Assembly (NCBI GenBank): GCA_963674785.1
Contig: OY771555.1
Span: forward strand, 1,792,001 to 1,856,000
Reading direction: 5' to 3'
DNA: 64,000 nucleotides
DNA from: Caldisericia bacterium
GTDB taxonomy: Bacteria; Caldisericota; Caldisericia; JAAYUI01
Shown piece after piece: positions 54,297 through 63,040 of this stretch. How positions within the stretch are numbered: the first letter of the stretch is position 1; each line of letters starts with the position of its first letter. The notes below the pieces were generated by a model. That model saw nothing but the letters and a program-made list of their open reading frames with translations, did not search any database and was not told the origin of the DNA. Both the position numbers and the translations under genes were made by a program.

Positions 54297-55316
54297 TCAT
54301 TTCAAACTTGATCTCATATAGGTTCCACCTGGAAGTTTTTTTATAATATTTTTCAAATCTAAAACTGTTAAAACTGGTAAAACAGCCTCCGGAGGAAGAT
54401 TTAGAGCTGTGCAAAGTTCATCTAGTGTAAGCGGATTTGAACAAGCTGCAACAACCTTTGATTCAAGATCGCTTAAAACAGTTTCGTTACTCTGAAGACC
54501 CACACCAAGGACTTCAAGCACATCATTTGGGGAATCAACGAGGATCGCTGAATCCTTTATCAACCTGTTGCATCCAGCAAAACTGTTCATACCAGGAAGC
54601 CCTGGGCAAGCCATCACATCTCTTCCAAGCTCCATTGCTTTCCTTGCAGTTATTAATGCTCCAGACTTTTCTGGGGCTTCAACGACAACAATGGCAGATG
54701 AAAGTGCTGCAATTATTCTATTTCTCCAGGTGAATGTCCATTTGCCTGCAGGGAAATTATCTGGGAATTCCGAAACAATAGCTCCTTTTTTAATAATCCT
54801 CTCAGCAAAGGATTTTTTTCTACTTGTGAGCTTCCCGATACCTGAACCGATAACGGCAACAGTTGTTCCATCCGCATCAAGACAGCCTTCATGTGATGAG
54901 CTATCTATACCATCTGCAAGGCCTGAAACAATAGAAATACCAGAGCTTGCTATGTCTCTGGCAAACGATCTTGCAATGTGCATGCCCTGAGGTGTTGCCT
55001 TTCTTGTTCCAACCATGGCAACGGAATTTTTTGAAACTTCATTAAGATCTGCATTACCCCTCATAAATAAACAAACCGGTGGGCTTTCAAGGTGAAAAAG
55101 CGCCACCGGATATTTTTCATCATCCTGAGTAATAATCTCAGAATCAGACTCTCTTAACTCAACCTCAGCAAACTTTCGGGCTTCGCTGAGGGCTTTCTTA
55201 TCAATACTACCTAGAATACTGTCCGGACTATTTTCTTTTACAGCCGAACAGATGGAAGGCTTCCTGCTTGCAAGAATTGCAAGAGTCAACCAATCCAATC
55301 TAGATAACTCACTCAC
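54297..55316 (-). CDS. dprA: DNA-processing protein DprA
   Basis: AMVGTR, IVSGLADGID, RNRIIAALS, VVEA..KSGALIT, C-terminal winged helix. Confidence 0.95.
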   Translation of the reverse strand: MSELSRLDWLTLAILASRKPSICSAVKENSPDSILGSIDKKALSEARKFAEVELRESDSEIITQDDEKYPVALFHLESPPVCLFMRGNADLNEVSKNSVAMVGTRKATPQGMHIARSFARDIASSGISIVSGLADGIDSSSHEGCLDADGTTVAVIGSGIGKLTSRKKSFAERIIKKGAIVSEFPDNFPAGKWTFTWRNRIIAALSSAIVVVEAPEKSGALITARKAMELGRDVMACPGLPGMNSFAGCNRLIKDSAILVDSPNDVLEVLGVGLQSNETVLSDLESKVVAACSNPLTLDELCTALNLPPEAVLPVLTVLDLKNIIKKLPGGTYMRSSLK

Positions 55317-55582
55317 TATAGCTTTTTATTATAGACCCAAGTCAATGAAGCCAAACCGGTGAAAACCAAAAAGGCACCGAAAGAGGCAACAACCCACTGC
55401 TGAAATGGAGTTTTGTCAAGCAGATATTTCATACTTCCTGCCGAACTCATCAATCTCTCAACTCTTTTAATGTTGTCGGGTCGAATGGCATCCCATACCT
55501 CAAGACCAATTATCAAACAAAGACAGAGGGCTGCAAGCGCCACAAGGACAAACATAATTGCGGTTGCTTTTTCTTCCTTCAT
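55316..55582 (-). CDS. Small two-TM membrane protein, possible complex subunit
   Basis: 88 aa, two hydrophobic helices, abuts or overlaps both neighbours. Confidence 0.72.
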   Translation of the reverse strand: MKEEKATAIMFVLVALAALCLCLIIGLEVWDAIRPDNIKRVERLMSSAGSMKYLLDKTPFQQWVVASFGAFLVFTGLASLTWVYNKKL

Positions 55583-55831
55583 CTATTTTTCCTTTCCTAA
55601 CAAATTCTCAAAAAATGATACTTTTCTTGTGATTCTTCCCCTTGCCTTTTCAGATGCATACATCCCAAAAACGAGAAGAAACATCGAAACCAAAAAGAGC
55701 AAAAAGAAAACAATAATCTGAAAATAGAGCATAAACCCACTAAAATCAGATTTGACTAAATTTACTATCTGAGAAACTGAGAATATCGCAGCAAACAAAG
55801 CCAAGAAGAAAAGTATCAAATGTTTGTTCAT
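55583..55831 (-). CDS. Small two-TM membrane protein, possible complex subunit
   Basis: 82 aa, two hydrophobic helices, TAATG overlap with the cytochrome b stop. Confidence 0.72.
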   Translation of the reverse strand: MNKHLILFFLALFAAIFSVSQIVNLVKSDFSGFMLYFQIIVFFLLFLVSMFLLVFGMYASEKARGRITRKVSFFENLLGKEK

Positions 55832-57885
55832 TATTCGGCTCTCACCTCTACCAAACCAGGGTCAATTCCGAGTTTTTCAGCAAGAACTTTCTTTTTATTG
55901 GATTTCCTCATACGCCACCAGACATAAAGCAGGAAGGCAACAATAAACACAAAAGCATTAAAGAGAAGAATTGCATTTATATACAACTGTCTTTGAGCAT
56001 CTTGGAACGGAATCCAATAAGCAGCCAATGAACCAAACAAGAAGAAGGTTAGACCGCCAATCGCAAGCGTGATAAGTCCAGGTCTTCCCTTGGCTGATCT
56101 TTCGGGTCGTTTGTCAAACAGTGGAAACATGACAAGGAAAACAATGAATAGTAGCGTAACGAGTGTTCCAACATATCCCGGAAGGAATTTCAAATAGAAG
56201 TAGACAAATAGGAAATACCAATCCGGCAGAATATGGTCGGGCGTTTTTACGGTGTTCGGAGGTGGTTCGTTTGCCGCAGGCAGATATAAACACGCGGAAA
56301 CAATTACAACCACAAGCAATAGTATTGCAATCCAATTTATCTTTGGTCGCTTTTTCCTTGATCTGATAAAGTATATCTCTGCCATCATAAATAGAAGGAT
56401 CGGCAAGAAATAATGGATAATATTGAATCTGAGGATTGTTGTTTGTCCAACCTGATGAGCTCCAAGACCCATATACTTTAGAGCTGAACCAAGACCTAAT
56501 TGTCCAATAACCGGCATACTATCCAGAGAATTCATCATCTGAGTACCAACAGTCGTAGCCCAGTATGCCCTTTGGTCGAATGGAAGAAGGTAACCTGTGA
56601 CACCAGAGAATGTTATTAGAACGACAATGATTGTAAGGAGTATCCAAGTAAGTTCGCCTGGTTTTTTAAACTCACCACAGAAAAACATTCTTATCCACCT
56701 AAGCATAAGAAGTGCAATAATTCCGTATGCACCATATCTATGGATTCCTCTTATCCACTGGGTAAGAGGTTTTTTTGAGATTTCTGCAACAGAATTATAA
56801 GCTCTGGTTACTGTCACGCCCAAATCTTCTGTGATTGTGTCGGCAGATTTTCCCATCAAACCAGTAAGTTCTTCAACAGCAATCTTCACAGCATCATCTT
56901 TACCATGGGCAAAATGATGGAGCTTTTCTTTCTGTTCTTCCGACAGGTTAGCAAAAATTGGTTCAAGTTTTTGAGATTCTTCGATTGCATCGGGAATAGG
57001 TAATCCAGCATATGTTGTACCATCAATGACTTCAGCTTTTGTTTTTCCCGCAAACTGAAGAATGCTTCTCTCATAATCAGTGACCGTATCGCTTTCCTTG
57101 AGCATTGCTTCATCTGCTTCAGCAATCATATCATCAATTGTGATAGTTGTCTTTTCACCATTTTCAATCTTTGCTATAGGTAGCCCATAAGAAAGAAGTG
57201 TTGTAGAATCCTCGCTCAACCTATAAATAGAAAACAACTCAATGATATGGTCTCGAAGAACATCAGCTTCATCAATGGCCTCGGTTATCTGAGTTTCTCC
57301 ATGATATGTTCCGGCAACCAAATCATCAGCATCCTCAGAGGCAAGTTCCATGATTTTAAGATAGTTTTCATCACAGGCAACTTGCTCTTCATCTGTCATC
57401 TTCTTGTATTCTTTTTCATGACTTTTACCAAGAGTAATGAGTCCCTCAAGGTCTCTGACAGGTGAATCGATCTCAAGATTTTCGACTACATATTCAAAAT
57501 CCTTTTTTCCAACAACCTCAAAAATCTCTCTCTGGTGTTCAGAATCAAAATCATAATGCTCGATAAAAAGATGATGAATCTCCTCTGCCTCTTCCATCAC
57601 CATCTCATATGTATGTCCATGTGAATACGTAACAAGCCCGGGTTCAACTTTATCAACTGGTGTGGTGTCAGGAATATAGAGGAATGTCAACACAAGCCCG
57701 AGGCAGACCTGCAAAATGAGCAACACATATATCATAGAACCCATCCAGTAGAATGGATTCGATTTCTTATACTCAGGTGTATTTTCATCCAGAATATTCA
57801 TATTCTGGGCTCTATCTCTCCACCATCTCATCCACTTTTTCGAGAAGTTTGAGAGCCAAATTGCAAATTTATCTGTAATACTCAC
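55831..57885 (-). CDS. Cytochrome b (Rieske/cytb type) with ~290-aa insert; only bL His ligands; PDWY motif
   Basis: GYLLPFDQRAYWA, PDHILPDWYFLF, IRGIHRYG, RFNIIH; second His of each pair replaced by R and Y. Confidence 0.88.
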   Translation of the reverse strand: MSITDKFAIWLSNFSKKWMRWWRDRAQNMNILDENTPEYKKSNPFYWMGSMIYVLLILQVCLGLVLTFLYIPDTTPVDKVEPGLVTYSHGHTYEMVMEEAEEIHHLFIEHYDFDSEHQREIFEVVGKKDFEYVVENLEIDSPVRDLEGLITLGKSHEKEYKKMTDEEQVACDENYLKIMELASEDADDLVAGTYHGETQITEAIDEADVLRDHIIELFSIYRLSEDSTTLLSYGLPIAKIENGEKTTITIDDMIAEADEAMLKESDTVTDYERSILQFAGKTKAEVIDGTTYAGLPIPDAIEESQKLEPIFANLSEEQKEKLHHFAHGKDDAVKIAVEELTGLMGKSADTITEDLGVTVTRAYNSVAEISKKPLTQWIRGIHRYGAYGIIALLMLRWIRMFFCGEFKKPGELTWILLTIIVVLITFSGVTGYLLPFDQRAYWATTVGTQMMNSLDSMPVIGQLGLGSALKYMGLGAHQVGQTTILRFNIIHYFLPILLFMMAEIYFIRSRKKRPKINWIAILLLVVVIVSACLYLPAANEPPPNTVKTPDHILPDWYFLFVYFYLKFLPGYVGTLVTLLFIVFLVMFPLFDKRPERSAKGRPGLITLAIGGLTFFLFGSLAAYWIPFQDAQRQLYINAILLFNAFVFIVAFLLYVWWRMRKSNKKKVLAEKLGIDPGLVEVRAE

Positions 57886-57899
57886 CTATCTCCTCCTTC

Positions 57900-58742
57900 T
57901 CAAAATACCGGCATTTCATCAACTTGTGCAGCTGAGAAAACTGGACCATCCTGACATACATAGTGATGTCCAACATTGCACCGACCACATTTTCCAAATC
58001 CACAATTCATTCTTGCTTCAAGTGAAACAAAAATGTTTTCTTTTGGGAAGCCAATCTTATCGAGTGCTATCAATGTGAACTTGATCATTATCGGTGGACC
58101 AGACGCTATAACTGCAGTATTGGTAAATCCTGGGTCATCCTTAAACAGAAGCGATGACTTGTTTGCGAATTCTTTATCATAGAACTGAGGTACAACACCT
58201 ACATCGTGAGTCCAATTTTTGTCACCGTTATCAACAGTCAGCTTGATGTCAAAGTCTTTGACAGATTTCCATTCATCAAGTTCTGGTTTGAAAACAAGGT
58301 CACCTGGTGTTCTTGCTCCATACAAAAGCTCCATTCTTTTGAAGTCATTTCTGTTATCAAAAGTATACTGCATAATGTTGCTAATAGCTGGAAGCCCAAC
58401 ACCACCAGCCATGAATGAAATATTCTTGCCTTTAAGTTTGTCTACTGGGAAGCCATTTCCAAATGGTCCCCTGAATGTGAGATTGTCACCAACTAAGTGC
58501 TCATGGATTTTTTCAGTAACCGCACCAACACTGGCAATAGTAAGCTTGATAAATCCCTTCTGAGTTGGGGATGAACCGATAGAGATTGCGGATTCACCAA
58601 CACCCGGAACACCAACAATACAAAACTGACCAGGATTATAATTCAAATCATTCTTGAGTTTCAGCTTGAATGATTTTATAGACTCTGTTTCATTGATAAT
58701 TTCTAAAATTTCAACTATTTCTGGTTTTGACATATCTGTCAT
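57900..58742 (-). CDS. FlxA/HydG/AsrB-like FAD/NAD-binding [2Fe-2S] subunit
   Basis: PGQF, RGPFGNGF, AGGVG, YGART, GPPIM, MNCGFGKCGRC..CQDGPVF; start after GGAGG. Confidence 0.9.
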   Translation of the reverse strand: MTDMSKPEIVEILEIINETESIKSFKLKLKNDLNYNPGQFCIVGVPGVGESAISIGSSPTQKGFIKLTIASVGAVTEKIHEHLVGDNLTFRGPFGNGFPVDKLKGKNISFMAGGVGLPAISNIMQYTFDNRNDFKRMELLYGARTPGDLVFKPELDEWKSVKDFDIKLTVDNGDKNWTHDVGVVPQFYDKEFANKSSLLFKDDPGFTNTAVIASGPPIMIKFTLIALDKIGFPKENIFVSLEARMNCGFGKCGRCNVGHHYVCQDGPVFSAAQVDEMPVF

Positions 58743-59782
58743 AAAACACCTCCTAATGAGGCTAATGTGTCTGCAAGAGAGATTCCAGCAGGACAAAGGT
58801 CTGTGCATCTTCCACAACCTGTACATGCAATCTCGCCATAGAGAGTCACATGATATTCAAATTTATCCAAGATTCTGTTTTTGAATCTGTCAGCGGTTGT
58901 TGGTCGCGGGTTGTGTCCGGATGCCTCAAGGCTGTATGTGCAGAAACTACAAGAGTCCCAGCATTTAATCTTTTCAGATTCATCTGGTTTCGTCTTGATC
59001 TCTCTGGTTTCAAAACAGTGACATGTCGGGCAAAGAAGGGTACAGACACCACATGTGATACAACCCATGCTAACTTCTTCCCAAACATCTGTTTTCTTGT
59101 AGAGATCCATGAGTTTTCCGGCGTTTTCTGTTGGAACCTTCAAAGTAATCATGGATTCACATTTTTTGTTTGCCTCAGCCTGGGCAGCAGCGGGATTTCC
59201 ATCATCTGTGAAGAAGGATTTATTATCAGCAAGGAATTTTTTTCCTTTTTCTGAAACCTGCATCACAGTGTATCCACCAATGTCTGGAATAAAGAGAAGG
59301 TCTGAACCCTTTTCATCTGCAGGATGAATTCCAAGTGATGTACATGAACAGGTTGAAAGAGGTTTTGTGCAGGCAACCGAAAAAACAAGGGTTTTTTCAC
59401 GATGTTTCTTCCACTGTGGATCAATATGCTTCTGCTCTCCACCATCTTTTCTTTTTGTGTCCATAAAGAAATTATCAAGGAGCATAAATCCTTTTGCATC
59501 GCACGGTCTCACACCAAAAATTACAGTGTTCTCGATTTCAGGTGCTTCTTTAATTTCAAGTATTTTTCCAGCGGTCGATCTTGTTGTAAGAATTTTTTCT
59601 GTCTGCGGAAAGATAATCTCTTTTGGTGGTGTTTTTGTTCTAACTGTATCCAAATCTATTTTTGCATTTTCAGCAATTAGATGAAAATTTGTTGTTCCAT
59701 CAATCTTCTGAGGGACAAAAACTCTCGCATTATCAGAGATTGTAAGAAGAAGTTCGTTAAGTTTATCGTGTGTAATCTTCAT
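58739..59782 (-). CDS. FlxB/HydB/AsrA-like 4Fe-4S protein
   Basis: PKEIIFPQTE, FGVRPCD, CITCGVCTLLCPTCHC, CTGCGRCTDLCP. Confidence 0.88.
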   Translation of the reverse strand: MKITHDKLNELLLTISDNARVFVPQKIDGTTNFHLIAENAKIDLDTVRTKTPPKEIIFPQTEKILTTRSTAGKILEIKEAPEIENTVIFGVRPCDAKGFMLLDNFFMDTKRKDGGEQKHIDPQWKKHREKTLVFSVACTKPLSTCSCTSLGIHPADEKGSDLLFIPDIGGYTVMQVSEKGKKFLADNKSFFTDDGNPAAAQAEANKKCESMITLKVPTENAGKLMDLYKKTDVWEEVSMGCITCGVCTLLCPTCHCFETREIKTKPDESEKIKCWDSCSFCTYSLEASGHNPRPTTADRFKNRILDKFEYHVTLYGEIACTGCGRCTDLCPAGISLADTLASLGGVL

Positions 59783-59787
59783 AAAAA

Positions 59788-60780
59788 TCAACCCCCTAAA
59801 ACTTCCTCACCCTTTATGAGTGACAATGGGGATGTAGCCTTTTCAGAGATTCCAGCGGCAAATTCCCAGTTTTCCTTCTGCATCAGTCTGAGCTGGTCTG
59901 TAATAATATTCAATGGAATATTCTCAGGACACGCCCTTGTACATTCGCCACAACCAGTGCATCTGTCTGAAAGGTGGTAAAAGTGAATAAAATGATACTG
60001 CAGAATGTCTTTTAGTTCGTGTGATTTATGAATGAATGGTTCAGGAAGCTTCTGCCTGTCCATAACACAGTTCTCATTACAATGACAGCCTGGGCAGGCA
60101 TCTCTACACGCAAAACACATTACACATCTTGAGAGGTGTTTTAAAATGAAGTCCTGTCTCACATGGAATGGTTTATCTTTATATTCAGAAACCCAATCCA
60201 TATTCATTTCATCCTTTGACTCTCTTGGATCGTCATCTGGAATCAAAAGATCGAAGTTATCTGGTTTTGTGATTGAACAATGGATACATTTTGGAAGCAA
60301 CCAATCTTCTCTCTCGAGTTTCATCTTTGAACCATCGAGGAGTTCAAGCTGAATACTCTTTCCATCATCAATGATTTCTTTTGAGTCAATATGAAGTGAA
60401 TCTCTCATTCGAGATACATCAAGGTTTCCTGAGCAGTTTACTCCTAGTACCCAGAAACCGTGTCTGTCGAGTTTACTCTCAGAGACGCTGACTTTTATCG
60501 ATTTTGAATCACACCCTTTAACAAGAATTCCAATTTTTTTCTTTGGCTGTTTCAAAGATTTTATGAAGTTGCTTTTTCCTTCAATCATCCTCACAAGGTT
60601 TTGAGTGCAGAACGAATCGTAAACCAACTTATCAGCATCCTCTGCTGTCCTACAAACGAATGGTCTTCTTTTTCCAGATATTCCGTCTACTTTTCTATAA
60701 CCGATAAAAGCAGAGATTTTTCCAGAGTTAAGCTCATCTTTTACTACCTCGCGGAGGTACTCTAAAATCTGTGTGTTCAT
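59788..60780 (-). CDS. FlxC-like (FrhB/FdhB-related) 4Fe-4S protein
   Basis: KGCD, KCIHC, CVMCFACRDACPGCHC, CTGCGECTRACP. Confidence 0.85.
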   Translation of the reverse strand: MNTQILEYLREVVKDELNSGKISAFIGYRKVDGISGKRRPFVCRTAEDADKLVYDSFCTQNLVRMIEGKSNFIKSLKQPKKKIGILVKGCDSKSIKVSVSESKLDRHGFWVLGVNCSGNLDVSRMRDSLHIDSKEIIDDGKSIQLELLDGSKMKLEREDWLLPKCIHCSITKPDNFDLLIPDDDPRESKDEMNMDWVSEYKDKPFHVRQDFILKHLSRCVMCFACRDACPGCHCNENCVMDRQKLPEPFIHKSHELKDILQYHFIHFYHLSDRCTGCGECTRACPENIPLNIITDQLRLMQKENWEFAAGISEKATSPLSLIKGEEVLGG

Positions 60781-61184
60781 ACAGCAACCTCCTTTTCAGC
60801 AAGATTCTTTTTTAGAGATGAGATTGTTCTTGTGAGTTGACCAGGGTCAAGCCTGTCTCTTTGAATGTAAACCATTCTCCATGGGTCAATTCCAAGAGCC
60901 TCAGCTACATTTTTTGCTGAGAAGACCCTTCTTTTTGCAAATTGGTTTCCATCAAAATTGTGGCAATCAAACTCGGGGCAGGCGTAAACAATAACACCAC
61001 CCGCACCCTCCATTAGTGACTTAAACATAACAATAGGGTTTACCATTCCAGCACAAGCAATTTCGACAAAATCGACGCTTGGAAACCTGTTTTTATGTTC
61101 TTCAAGATGTTTTCCTCGAAGAGAACCTTTACAATGAAGAACAATGATTTTCTCACCAATAGGAAGTTCTACTGACTTATGCAT
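60777..61184 (-). CDS. MvhD/FlxD-like [2Fe-2S] subunit
   Basis: LHC, CAGMV, GAGGV..C...DCH..GN..A.RR, GIDP.R MvhD pattern. Confidence 0.85.
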   Translation of the reverse strand: MHKSVELPIGEKIIVLHCKGSLRGKHLEEHKNRFPSVDFVEIACAGMVNPIVMFKSLMEGAGGVIVYACPEFDCHNFDGNQFAKRRVFSAKNVAEALGIDPWRMVYIQRDRLDPGQLTRTISSLKKNLAEKEVAV

Positions 61185-62239
61185 ATATCCCTCATTCCCT
61201 GGAGCAATCCTTTGCTCTCCATTCCTTCAAGTTCAATCACCTGAGGAAGACAACCAGCAACGCATATCCCACAAGCCTGACATCTTCTCGGCGTAACATA
61301 TGCAACCTGTTTGGTTTCAGTTCTGTTGATTTTATATGTTTTTTTGCTTATTGCATTTTTTGGACAAAGAGTAATGCATGCAAAGCAACCATTACATCTG
61401 GCAGGGTCAACTTTCGCTGCTTTTGTAATCTTTTTGCCAATAAGAGGTAATGCTACAAGCAGACCCACAATGCCAACCCAAACGATCTGTGCAATGTTTT
61501 GAGATGGCAGTTTTATCATCCATAATCCAACCCAATCAAATGAATATTTAGCAAATTTCATTTTCATTTCGGCTTCAGGGATTGGGAATAGTGCAATAAT
61601 TATTGCAAGGAAACCCAATGAGATAATCGTAAGAGCAATTGTTGGAACAATTGGTGGTCTCGAAATTCTGACGAAATGCCAAATGAGTCCAGCAAAAACA
61701 AGAATAGGAAGACCAATGTGTACAGCTCTGTAAATAACCAGCAGGGCACCAGAAGAAATCGACATCCCGAAGAACTCAACAATTTTAAATGACCTTGCAT
61801 CCATAGGAAGAATATATCCAGAAACAGTGATTCCAATGGTCATAATAAGAAGACCAATACCGACATACCAACCAACTGATCTTGTGCTTGTATGTCTTCC
61901 TGCAAAAAGTTTTCTGAGTAGATGCAATACAGCAAAGATTATCATTGCATCTGCTGCATACCTGTGGAGTGTTCTGATAAATAATCCATAAGGTACCATA
62001 TCAGACATAATGTAAAGAACAGAGTTTCTCGCATGTTCAATCGATGGCATATAAAAGAAACTAAGAAGGAACCCTGAGATTATCTGAACAAGAAAAAACA
62101 ATAATGTCAGAGAGCCAAGATGATTGAAAATATTAATTGATGAAAAACCTGCCTTTAAAACGTCAGCGATTCCAAGAAACCCATTAATGAAAAAATTAAA
62201 AGGTTTTCTAAGACTATAAGCATCTCGTCTACTCATCAT
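61169..62239 (-). CDS. Cytochrome b N-domain (four heme His) fused to C-terminal 2x[4Fe-4S] ferredoxin
   Basis: H-x13-H in both helices B and D; CNGCFACITLCP and CQACGICVAGC. Confidence 0.88.
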   Translation of the reverse strand: MMSRRDAYSLRKPFNFFINGFLGIADVLKAGFSSINIFNHLGSLTLLFFLVQIISGFLLSFFYMPSIEHARNSVLYIMSDMVPYGLFIRTLHRYAADAMIIFAVLHLLRKLFAGRHTSTRSVGWYVGIGLLIMTIGITVSGYILPMDARSFKIVEFFGMSISSGALLVIYRAVHIGLPILVFAGLIWHFVRISRPPIVPTIALTIISLGFLAIIIALFPIPEAEMKMKFAKYSFDWVGLWMIKLPSQNIAQIVWVGIVGLLVALPLIGKKITKAAKVDPARCNGCFACITLCPKNAISKKTYKINRTETKQVAYVTPRRCQACGICVAGCLPQVIELEGMESKGLLQGMRDICISQ

Positions 62240-62796
62240 GCTAGCCTTTCCGGAGTTTTTTTATCAATAATTATGCTTCCATCATCTTCAACAATAACCG
62301 TCCAAGGATGAAGAGGGCTTGGAGGTGGACCACCAAGGACTTTGGTCATAGTTGGGTCAAAGAAACCATCATGACATCTACAATGCCATGTTTTTGATTC
62401 TGTATTCCATCTGACAACACAACCAAGATGAGTACATTTTGCATCCCAAGCCATAAGCGTACCATTTGTATCCTTAATCAAAATTCCGGGTTCCCTAATT
62501 TTGATTGGCTTGTAAGGGATTGAACGATCTTCGGTGATGATCTCAAAAGAATATCCGACCATGCTTTCAAGCTCATCTTTTTTCGCAGGGACTGGTACGA
62601 AAGAATCACCAACGGGTTTCATGACGGATGCTAATTTGTTAACCGCAACGGGCGCTGGTGGCACCTCAAGTCCAATCTTACCAAATGGCTTCAAAAGTCT
62701 GAGAATCGGTGATAAAGCAGCTAGAATTGCTCCAAAAAAAGGAACAGCTAGCAGGACTTTTAGCAGTTGCCTTCGAGTGACCTTTTTTTCTTCCAC
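62236..62796 (-). CDS. Rieske [2Fe-2S] subunit with Tat-like anchor
   Basis: TRRQLLK plus TM helix, CTHLGC, CRCHDG, GPPP; GTG start after AAGGAGG. Confidence 0.92.
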   Translation of the reverse strand: MEEKKVTRRQLLKVLLAVPFFGAILAALSPILRLLKPFGKIGLEVPPAPVAVNKLASVMKPVGDSFVPVPAKKDELESMVGYSFEIITEDRSIPYKPIKIREPGILIKDTNGTLMAWDAKCTHLGCVVRWNTESKTWHCRCHDGFFDPTMTKVLGGPPPSPLHPWTVIVEDDGSIIIDKKTPERLA

Positions 62797-62990: not shown

Positions 62991-63018
62991 AAAAAAGCGG
63001 GGCTCAAGCGAGCCCCGC
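62991..63018 (-). terminator. Intrinsic terminator
   Basis: GCGGGGCTC-GCTT-GAGCCCCGC followed by a T-run on the minus strand. Confidence 0.88.
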
Positions 63019-63040
63019 CAACATAAAGTTTTTGTTTTAT

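Follow-up and report, generated by a model that had tools for sequence, protein, structure and literature searches.

A cytochrome b ending in an HdrA-like ferredoxin domain ahead of MvhD in a Rieske/cytochrome b-Flx operon of Caldisericia

In the QmoABC, HdrED and DsrMK-type complexes, cytoplasmic [4Fe-4S] clusters and HdrA/MvhD-like proteins are wired to a dihaem cytochrome b in the membrane. In the HdrABC-MvhAGD complex of methanogens, whose solved structure is attributed to Wagner et al. 2017, the MvhD cluster reportedly feeds the C-terminal ferredoxin domain of HdrA, and Flx, found as FlxABCD-HdrABC in sulfate reducers and other anaerobes, is said, following Ramos et al. 2015, to oxidise NADH. 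Here a related joint is described in a window of 64,000 nucleotides (by which is meant the whole stretch of DNA analysed, positions 1,792,001 to 1,856,000 of contig OY771555.1, assembly GCA_963674785.1) from a Caldisericia bacterium, where a cytochrome b ends in a ferredoxin domain directly ahead of an mvhD gene. This protein (cytb-Fd hereafter) belongs to the bc1/b6f family and has a Rieske partner, whereas QmoABC, HdrED and DsrMK use cytochromes b of the NarI/HdrE type. It is encoded by the second gene of a nine-gene operon on the minus strand, whose genes overlap or abut in the order twin-arginine Rieske protein, cytb-Fd, MvhD, FlxC-, FlxB- and FlxA-like proteins, a cytochrome b-subunit IV fusion, and a pair of small membrane proteins. 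With a probability of roughly 0.65, the last 89 residues of cytb-Fd are an adaptor of the HdrA C-terminal type that relays electrons between the haems of that protein and MvhD and Flx, in a heterodimer of cytochromes b that would have no route through an inner quinone site (Qi).

The pieces of such an arrangement are already known, namely cytochrome b-iron-sulfur-MvhD fusions (since 2014), anammox Rieske/cytochrome b complexes with NAD(P) reductases, and Flx-Hdr. The relevant passages of Kao and Hunte 2014 (PMC4122944) describe a 'PDWF-FeS' clade with cytochrome b, 4Fe-4S and MvhD domains in gene clusters without a Rieske protein, naming Magnetospirillum magneticum and Turneriella parva, as well as a ferredoxin/flavin-reductase fusion in Alicycliphilus; the clade corresponds to 'subfamily H' in the matching section of Dibrova et al. 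2017 (PMC5600118). Three loci found in this work (L060, L063 and L032) belong to this kind, and the succession of cytochrome b, 4Fe-4S and MvhD is common to it and to Caldisericia. However, the 'PDWF-FeS' proteins are single fused chains beside haem-copper oxidase genes with no Rieske gene, whereas the Caldisericia operon has a separate mvhD, a Rieske gene, a second cytochrome b lacking its inner haem (bH) and FlxCBA, and both the cytochrome b and the ferredoxin parts of its protein fall outside the clade.

The closest analogues are the anammox complexes Kuste4569-4574 and Kustd1480-1485, which resemble the Caldisericia operon in combining a Rieske protein, a b6-like cytochrome b, subunit IV and a cytoplasmic iron-sulfur module that binds flavin adenine dinucleotide (FAD) and NAD(P), and in showing no clear Qi function; in the parts of PMC12954380 and PMC5600118 that treat them, their function is proposed, not proven. 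They contain one large NfnB/GltD-like subunit, multihaem cytochromes c and a high-potential Rieske protein, whereas in Caldisericia the link consists of the cytochrome b-fused ferredoxin domain, MvhD and three subunits like those of Flx, the operon is free of cytochrome c genes, and its Rieske protein is without the Ser/Tyr pair. In FlxABCD-HdrABC the gene order flxD(mvhD)-flxC-flxB-flxA is the same, and the subunit families are those of the hdrCBA-flxDCBA operons of sister Caldisericia, but here a Rieske protein and two cytochromes b stand in place of HdrABC. HdrA and MvhD themselves (HdrABC-MvhAGD of methanogens, and HdrA2 with MvhD fused) match cytb-Fd in the lead into the ferredoxin domain, an equally long hairpin, the string IEL.GF and a terminal helix, and in both cases mvhD comes directly next, overlapping or fused; HdrA-MvhD fusions arose repeatedly, according to the pertinent passage of PMC12054007. 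The difference is that here the domain sits on a membrane cytochrome b, in an operon without a bifurcating FAD, HdrBC or a heterodisulfide site. Among the papers listed by a literature search, none describes FlxDCBA attached by an HdrA-type joint to a Rieske protein and a pair of specialised cytochromes b, the supplementary clade tables of PMC4122944 and PMC5600118 aside, and the Caldisericia operon probably encodes an unusual respiratory complex without a textbook counterpart.

The features that make up the joint are as follows.
61439 to 62239, minus strand: membrane part of cytb-Fd, residues 1-267, helices A-D with four His and helices E and F with FDW.
61220 to 61438, minus strand: 2x[4Fe-4S] ferredoxin domain of cytb-Fd, residues 268-340 (Fer4_7; Cys conservation; HdrA alignment; trees).
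61175 to 61216, minus strand: C-terminal helix of cytb-Fd, residues 342-355 (AlphaFold2 model; alignment to HdrA).
60777 to 61184, minus strand: MvhD/FlxD-type [2Fe-2S] protein of 135 residues (PF02662 FlpD/MvhD, E 6.6e-19; HdrA2 model; tree).

The open reading frame (ORF) of cytb-Fd spans 61169-62239 on the minus strand and encodes 356 residues, in which the C-terminal strings AKVDPARCNGCFACITLCPKNAI ... AYVTPRRCQACGICVAGCLPQVIEL are followed by a tail reading GMESKGLLQGMRDICISQ. Pfam assigns residues 33-153 to Cytochrome_B (PF00033, bc1/b6f-type, E 1e-24), and all 20 aligned homologues keep the haem-ligand histidines H92, H106, H174 and H188 of helices B and D. Since helices A-D align to cytochrome b6 of solved b6f complexes, the N-terminus is placed on the cytoplasmic (n) side. 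A hydropathy scan adds two more helices (200-218 and 249-267), giving six in total, and with the N-terminus inside, the ferredoxin domain is therefore predicted to be cytoplasmic; the tail that bears it is positively charged (15 K+R vs 6 D+E). An AlphaFold2 model built on the 20-homologue alignment (mean predicted local distance difference test score 81.1, predicted template modelling score 0.79) has helices A-F followed by a small domain of alpha/beta type (276-340) and, at 342-355, a terminal helix. An earlier note on this DNA, made from its letters alone and starting its feature at position 61420 (the codon of A274), had read a cytochrome b with a C-terminal 2x[4Fe-4S] domain and short helix whose gene overlaps mvhD/flxD; the ORF, the Pfam matches and the model bear this out, with the strings exactly as it quoted them, and the predicted topology sets the domain on the cytoplasmic and not the outer face.

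The domain carries two CX2CX2CX3C motifs (cysteines 282/285/288/292 and 320/323/326/330) separated by a beta-hairpin. Since all eight cysteines are kept without exception, both in the 20 homologues and in the 26 domain segments aligned, the motifs are not a chance pattern, and the domain is predicted to hold two [4Fe-4S] clusters. Fer4_7 matches residues 281-331 with 31.3 bits against a cut-off of 27 (E 2.9e-7), and other Fer4 models match as well. No Pyr_redox or FAD family was found by the Pfam scan of cytb-Fd, whose N-terminal 267 residues are cytochrome b, so that the protein is not an HdrA polypeptide. The likeness to HdrA lies in the C-terminus: the domain aligns to five HdrA C-termini from end to end without internal gaps, hairpin, IEL.GF and terminal helix included, the chain ends falling within a few residues of each other, and the C-terminal helix has two counterparts in alignments, HdrA's own terminal helix and the linker helix ahead of MvhD in fused proteins. 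The NCBIfam HdrA2 model is colinear, its positions 571-633 matching the ferredoxin domain and 676-769 matching MvhD. Identity is 28-34% to HdrA C-termini, vs 26-30% to the cytochrome b-linked domains of other phyla that have a separate mvhD gene (architecture B, below).

Paralogy points in the same direction. When scored by single stretches, the best paralogue of the domain in its own genome is residues 937-1001 of a 1019-residue HdrA-like protein (27.3 bits, the next match reaching 19.2), whose gene is followed by mvhD, with a 4-nucleotide overlap, mvhG and mvhA. In the genomes of relatives, the best non-orthologous matches lie in ORFs of 614-663 or 1016-1063 residues, and the two that were checked are both HdrA. 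The locus of the 1019-residue protein (L091, G000:C1:1373405-1379716) encodes a 259-residue MvhD-like protein, the 1019-residue protein itself, which has two HdrA-like halves, MvhD, MvhG, MvhA and a maturation protease, with no hdrBC in the 8 kb around it. It lies about 476 kb from the operon, which holds no Hdr genes.

Phylogenetic placement gives a divided answer. The trees of the domain use only 82-83 alignment columns. In a tree of 56 domains, those from architecture B and from a fused type (architecture C, below) stand together (95/86), apart from a group of Caldisericia domains (architecture A), HdrA C-termini and small HdrA-C-like ferredoxins; in a cleaner maximum-likelihood (ML) tree of 41 rows, HdrA C-termini enclose the Caldisericia domains (supports 97/95, 95/89 and 96/86). 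Constraining all cytochrome b-linked domains to one clade costs 16.6 log-likelihood units. The approximately unbiased (AU) test was run twice: a first value, p 0.036, was set aside, as probable fragments of the cytochrome b-Fd-MvhD family outside the constrained group had confounded it, and the test was repeated without them.

Weighing against an origin of the domain in HdrA is, first of all, the outcome of that repeated test, in which a single clade of all cytochrome b-linked ferredoxin domains is not rejected (p 0.088); moreover, the tree groups were named after the first tree was known. Among solved structures, the polyferredoxins FwdF and MvhB rank above HdrA (4e-12 vs 3e-6), the HdrA match being to residues 577-637 of 5odc_A (E 3.1e-6). 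A search of the 89-residue domain against 1.84 billion representatives returned 763 matches at E <=1e-3, seven of them reaching 1e-10, with a mixed top and with small ferredoxin-only proteins outscoring those of HdrA length, a generic ferredoxin signal. Whole-protein scores in this search favour polyferredoxins, several stretches being summed, and 198 proteins were therefore re-scored by their best single stretch. The 23 proteins then scanned with Pfam were picked by hand from the top of the single-stretch ranking (at least 110 residues long, not exhaustive) and comprised eight HdrA-like proteins with a C-terminal ferredoxin domain, five with ferredoxin and FlpD, eight with ferredoxin only, one cytochrome b with ferredoxin and one response regulator with ferredoxin. 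The cytochrome b part forms three clades, one of architecture A, one of canonical and inner-haem-less proteins, and one of architectures B and C with FNR fusions; A does not fall inside B+C. The tree does not settle the order of the three, and either a single ancient fusion or two independent ones would be compatible with it.

These results also bear on the alternative that the domain has no special tie to HdrA and goes back to a single ancient event, shared with 'PDWF-FeS', in which a generic ferredoxin was joined to cytochrome b, so that the likeness would reflect only the fold, the MvhD partner and the short length. This seems rather unlikely. It accounts well for the position of the domain, which in all three architectures (20 of 20 sequences) comes immediately behind helix F and has a common lead, A.V...C.GC, and for the dominance of generic ferredoxins in the global search; it is allowed by the AU test, and the short alignment leaves room for it. 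The free ML tree, however, with its three supported branches, and the likelihood cost of the constraint speak for HdrA; the MvhD tree, described next, agrees independently, the Caldisericia cytochrome b part lies outside the clade of other phyla, and identity to HdrA C-termini is no lower than identity to other cytochrome b-linked domains. An HdrA origin is thus favoured but, from sequence comparison, not established. Where the earlier note had called the domain HdrA-style and asked where it clusters, colinearity, own-genome paralogy and the nesting in the free ML tree stand on its side, while the AU test and the generic signal of the global search do not.

The joint itself is compact. The ATG of mvhD, at 61184, lies 16 nucleotides upstream of the cytb-Fd stop codon (61169-61171), an overlap that suggests coupled translation. 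Across 25 MvhD sequences the cysteines C44, C69 and C74 are invariant and C18 is kept in at least 90%. A tree of 29 rows unites cytochrome b-linked and Hdr-linked MvhD/FlxD of Caldisericia against the proteins of architectures B and C (97/96). As neither a membrane helix nor a signal peptide is predicted for MvhD or the Flx-like proteins, these are placed on the same side as the ferredoxin domain. Complex prediction for the ferredoxin domain with MvhD scored 0.11 and 0.08 against a mark of 0.32, was run with no controls and counts neither way.

It is very improbable that the ferredoxin domain instead takes electrons from a soluble ferredoxin or another partner, with MvhD-Flx a separate soluble enzyme that happens to share the operon. 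To its credit, no interface is demonstrated, and FlxA/B-like pairs also serve soluble hydrogenases in this organism (the HydBGDA-like locus described below). Set against this, 30 of 49 homologues and most of the best 80 loci have cytochrome b, ferredoxin and MvhD in a single chain, all 14 split loci place mvhD after the cytb-Fd gene, and the 16-nucleotide overlap again suggests coupling. Docking of MvhD on a membrane protein may also be of wider relevance: an Hdr-MetVF complex of Sporomusa ovata is reported to have MvhD as its linker to the membrane, and of its partner there the passage concerned says that it 'could not be identified' (PMC9430772). By analogy, a cytochrome b with such a docking domain would be a candidate class for that partner.

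The joint is found well beyond the window. A word-based search gave 49 homologues, of which 14 are Caldisericia-like (353-355 residues), two are split, three are plain cytochromes b and 30 are fused (443-563 residues), with cytochrome b, Fer4 and FlpD in one chain. Relatives of cytb-Fd are encoded at 603 loci in species-representative genomes, and the best 80 of these were inspected; they fall into three architectures. Architecture A, that of Caldisericia, is the nine-gene operon, seen in L011-L014 (L015 being cut by a contig end) and also in two genomes of a sister family, f5 (G014 and G026); in the search for relatives it was recovered in 10 of 10 genomes of the window's own family and at full length in six of seven genomes of f5. 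Architecture B, in Melainabacteria, some Gammaproteobacteria, a Firmicutes metagenome-assembled genome (MAG), a Symbiobacterium thermophilum MAG and Armatimonadota, has the order cbb3-type oxidase/dihaem cytochrome c, Rieske, inner-haem-less cytochrome b, cytochrome b-ferredoxin and MvhD, with no Flx genes. L016:2524-10525, L042:4107-10566 and L029:5643-10547 (Melainabacteria, Symbiobacterium and Armatimonadota) are instances, standing after a cbb3-type oxidase and/or a dihaem cytochrome c. Wherever mvhD is separate among the best 80 loci, Rieske and inner-haem-less cytochrome b/subunit IV genes adjoin (14 of 14).

Architecture C, in Proteobacteria, Aquificota, Bacteroidota and others, is the fused cytochrome b-ferredoxin-MvhD chain whose neighbours are haem-copper oxidase and SCO1 genes, with no Rieske gene. 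It is sometimes accompanied by a cytochrome b fused to [2Fe-2S] ferredoxin, FAD and NAD domains in a protein of about 640 residues. Instances are L032:6508-8448, L028:98-2029, L076:8923-10863 and L084:6558-8480, which adjoin the cytochrome b-Fd-MvhD fusion, haem-copper oxidase and SCO1 genes. The cytochrome b parts of these proteins make up a clade within the group of architecture C.

Family f5 provides the closest view of the joint in two settings. L092, as well as L093 and L094, contains hdrC-hdrB-hdrA-mvhD-flxC-flxB-flxA, and L096 and L097 contain Rieske-cytbFd-mvhD-flxC-flxB-flxA-cytb2, the hdr and the Rieske operon both being present in genome G014. The same FlxDCBA arm thus follows either the ferredoxin domain of HdrA or that of a cytochrome b, and this is the strongest support for the proposal, made from the window's letters, that an HdrA/MvhD docking module was grafted onto cytochrome b as a modular plug to the Flx arm. 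As regards Flx, however, the proposal stands in part only: since architectures B and C are widespread without Flx, the ferredoxin-MvhD joint on cytochrome b is not specific to that arm, which weakens the reading of the joint as a Flx connector.

The remaining features of the operon, with the terminator upstream of it, are as follows.
62996 to 63019, minus strand: terminator-like hairpin of the upstream gene (10-bp stem, 8 GC pairs, T run).
62236 to 62796, minus strand: Rieske [2Fe-2S] protein of 186 residues (Pfam Rieske, E 1.9e-7; NCBIfam PetC-like).
59788 to 60780, minus strand: FlxC-like iron-sulfur protein of 330 residues (Fer4 families; two [4Fe-4S] motifs in the C-terminal third).
58739 to 59791, minus strand: FlxB-like (HydB/ShyB/AsrA-like) iron-sulfur protein of 350 residues (Fer4_22, E 1.3e-28).
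57900 to 58826, minus strand: FlxA-like FAD/NAD(P)-binding protein with a [2Fe-2S] site, HydG/AsrB-like (NAD_binding_1, FAD_binding_6, DHODB_Fe-S_bind; PRK08345, 5.7e-66).
55831 to 57885, minus strand: cytochrome b fused to subunit IV, 684 residues (Pfam Cytochrome_B and Cytochrom_B_C; b6 alignment).
55316 to 55831, minus strand: two small two-helix membrane proteins of 82 and 88 residues at the end of the operon (ORFs; predicted helices).

Because the terminator stands upstream of it, the Rieske gene is taken to be the first of the unit; it overlaps the cytb-Fd gene by 4 nucleotides. Genes 3-6 match flxD-flxC-flxB-flxA in order and families, so that FlxA-, FlxB- and FlxC-like proteins and FlxD, which is MvhD, are encoded in one cluster. 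In relatives with hdrCBA-flxDCBA loci, the gene that comes after mvhD encodes a homologue of the FlxC-like protein (E 3e-39 to 1e-41), and the FlxB-like protein of the operon matches ShyB (1.8e-50), HydB (1.2e-49) and AsrA (1.4e-36), all below curated cut-offs. The longest FlxA-like ORF starts at 58826 and overlaps the previous gene by 88 nucleotides; a start at 58742, which gives the usual 4-nucleotide overlap, is probably the true one, since orthologues begin at residue 29 (L011 alignment q29-308). The small membrane proteins are kept in L011-L014, and homologues of the first also occur in two Armatimonadota loci (L029 and L035). The genome's other FlxB/FlxA paralogues are the HydB- and HydG-like subunits of L099 (G000:C1:612115-616068), a sulfhydrogenase-type, NAD(P)-linked [NiFe] hydrogenase locus with HydB-HydG-HydD-HydA-like genes and a maturation protease.

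The second cytochrome b is specialised in a complementary way. It keeps the outer-haem (bL) histidine pair and a PDWYF motif of the quinol-oxidising (Qo) site, but in alignment to b6 its bH ligands are replaced (H100->R and H202->Y), leaving it without the full set of four histidines. The same loss is seen in nine homologues from Caldisericia, Melainabacteria, Gammaproteobacteria, Firmicutes, Symbiobacterium and Armatimonadota, the helix B ligand being Arg or Lys in nine of nine and the helix D ligand Tyr or Phe in eight of nine. Between helices A and B, on the outer side, lies an acidic insert of about 280 residues (about 56815-57660, minus strand; 72 D+E vs 33 K+R) with no Pfam match, which is present in the closest relative, L011 (681 residues), much shorter in L012-L014 (490 residues) and absent from family f5 and other phyla. 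The genome holds just two cytochromes b, cytb-Fd and this one, and the latter alone bears the Qo motif. It is from this pairing, a Qo-bearing cytochrome b without inner-haem ligands in a genome with only one other cytochrome b, that a heterodimer is inferred.

The most likely course of electrons is that the 2x[4Fe-4S] adaptor would relay them singly between the inner haem of cytb-Fd and the [2Fe-2S] cluster of MvhD, with MvhD passing them on to the FlxC and FlxB iron-sulfur proteins and to the FAD/NAD(P)-binding FlxA. The chain that sequence features favour would thus comprise NAD(P)H and FAD in FlxA, the FlxB/FlxC clusters, the MvhD [2Fe-2S] cluster, the 2x[4Fe-4S] adaptor, and the inner and outer haems. 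The two cytochromes b would form the heterodimer, in which the low-potential electron may cross from outer haem to outer haem and would leave or enter through the ferredoxin-MvhD-Flx chain and not through a Qi site. Overall, the reaction would link the NAD(P)+/NAD(P)H couple to menaquinone/menaquinol and to a partner on the Rieske side. As to direction, there is about an even chance that NAD(P)H is oxidised and its electrons passed to the membrane (the quinone/Rieske side) in this anaerobe; some further direction or use of the complex is improbable.

Other features fit this scheme less comfortably. Where P[E/D]W[Y/F] would be expected, cytb-Fd has only an FDWV remnant of the Qo motif, in which D235 is invariant and W236 kept in at least 90% of sequences, and, compared with other phyla, its cd loop is shorter by about 19 residues; this motif aside, the four His ligands and the adjoining Rieske gene place it in the Rieske/cytochrome b class. 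The Rieske protein has a twin-arginine signal (TRRQLLK), one membrane helix (14-32) and the cluster boxes CTHLGC and CRCH, but Gly and Phe where Ser and Tyr raise the potential. A low potential is predicted on that account, given the mutant data quoted in the relevant part of PMC12954380. Menaquinone itself is indicated by MenA, which scores above cut-off; MqnA was not found, the classical men pathway not having been searched. No haem-copper oxidase, cytochrome bd, NrfD or molybdopterin enzyme turned up in the genome, where, at 92% completeness, failure to find a gene does not prove it absent; the genome also holds NuoH, a cytochrome c assembly gene and an SdhA/FrdA-like flavoprotein. Neither is there a CXXCH protein in the operon or a genome ORF with two or more CXXCH motifs. 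Two single-CXXCH ORFs with an N-terminal helix or signal peptide (1573031-1573621 and 1060877-1061623 of G000:C1) are the sole candidates found for c-type cytochromes, and possible Rieske partners. With a low-potential Rieske protein and no acceptor system found, bifurcation of quinol electrons to NAD(P)+ looks energetically unfavourable.

That such bifurcation occurs all the same, over the same wiring, is the anammox-type alternative, in which one menaquinol electron would pass to the Rieske protein and an outer acceptor and the other, by way of both outer haems, the inner haem and the ferredoxin-MvhD-Flx chain, to NAD(P)+. It looks doubtful. Among solved structures, the closest to the Rieske protein is 9rk3 (E 2.1e-13), ahead of b6f Rieske proteins. 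PMC12954380 confirms 9rk3 as the Rieske protein Kustd1480, which belongs to an anammox complex that includes an NAD(P) reductase, and the passages concerned set out the proposal and its energetics. The Qo-bearing cytochrome b, without inner haem and hence without a Qi route, suits the proposal too, and in aerobic lineages the cytochrome b pair stands beside cytochrome c and cbb3-type oxidase genes, a possible high-potential pull. On the other hand, the Rieske protein here lacks the potential-raising Ser/Tyr pair, whereas the anammox Rieske proteins measure above +300 mV (same paper, section on potentials), no high-potential acceptor system was found in the genome, and with menaquinone and a low-potential Rieske protein the electron would fall short of -320 mV, an estimate from the scheme in that paper (PMC12954380).

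The adaptor reading of cytb-Fd has a more far-reaching form, in which ferredoxin/MvhD is an interchangeable connector that plugs the Flx module into HdrA or cytochrome b, the Qi-less heterodimer performs quinone-based bifurcation or confurcation, and the design is the first of its kind outside anammox; this can be put forward only tentatively. It touches the proposal that the low-potential electron from quinol oxidation may be delivered by Rieske/cytochrome b complexes to the cytoplasm and not to a Qi site, which in the passages of PMC12954380 that raise it has been argued so far only for anammox. For that proposal the Caldisericia operon would be a simpler model, with nine small genes, no multihaem cytochromes, and a division of labour between its cytochromes b that is visible in sequence, and in it the joint to the soluble module comes down to a defined 89-residue domain and MvhD. 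Module swapping can be followed within a single sister-family genome, where FlxDCBA stands behind HdrA in one operon and behind cytochrome b in another. The locus also hints at the kind of membrane protein on which MvhD complexes may dock, with MvhD as a general adaptor. Should it be true that the complex only oxidises NAD(P)H to quinone, it would still represent an undescribed type of respiratory NAD(P)H dehydrogenase.

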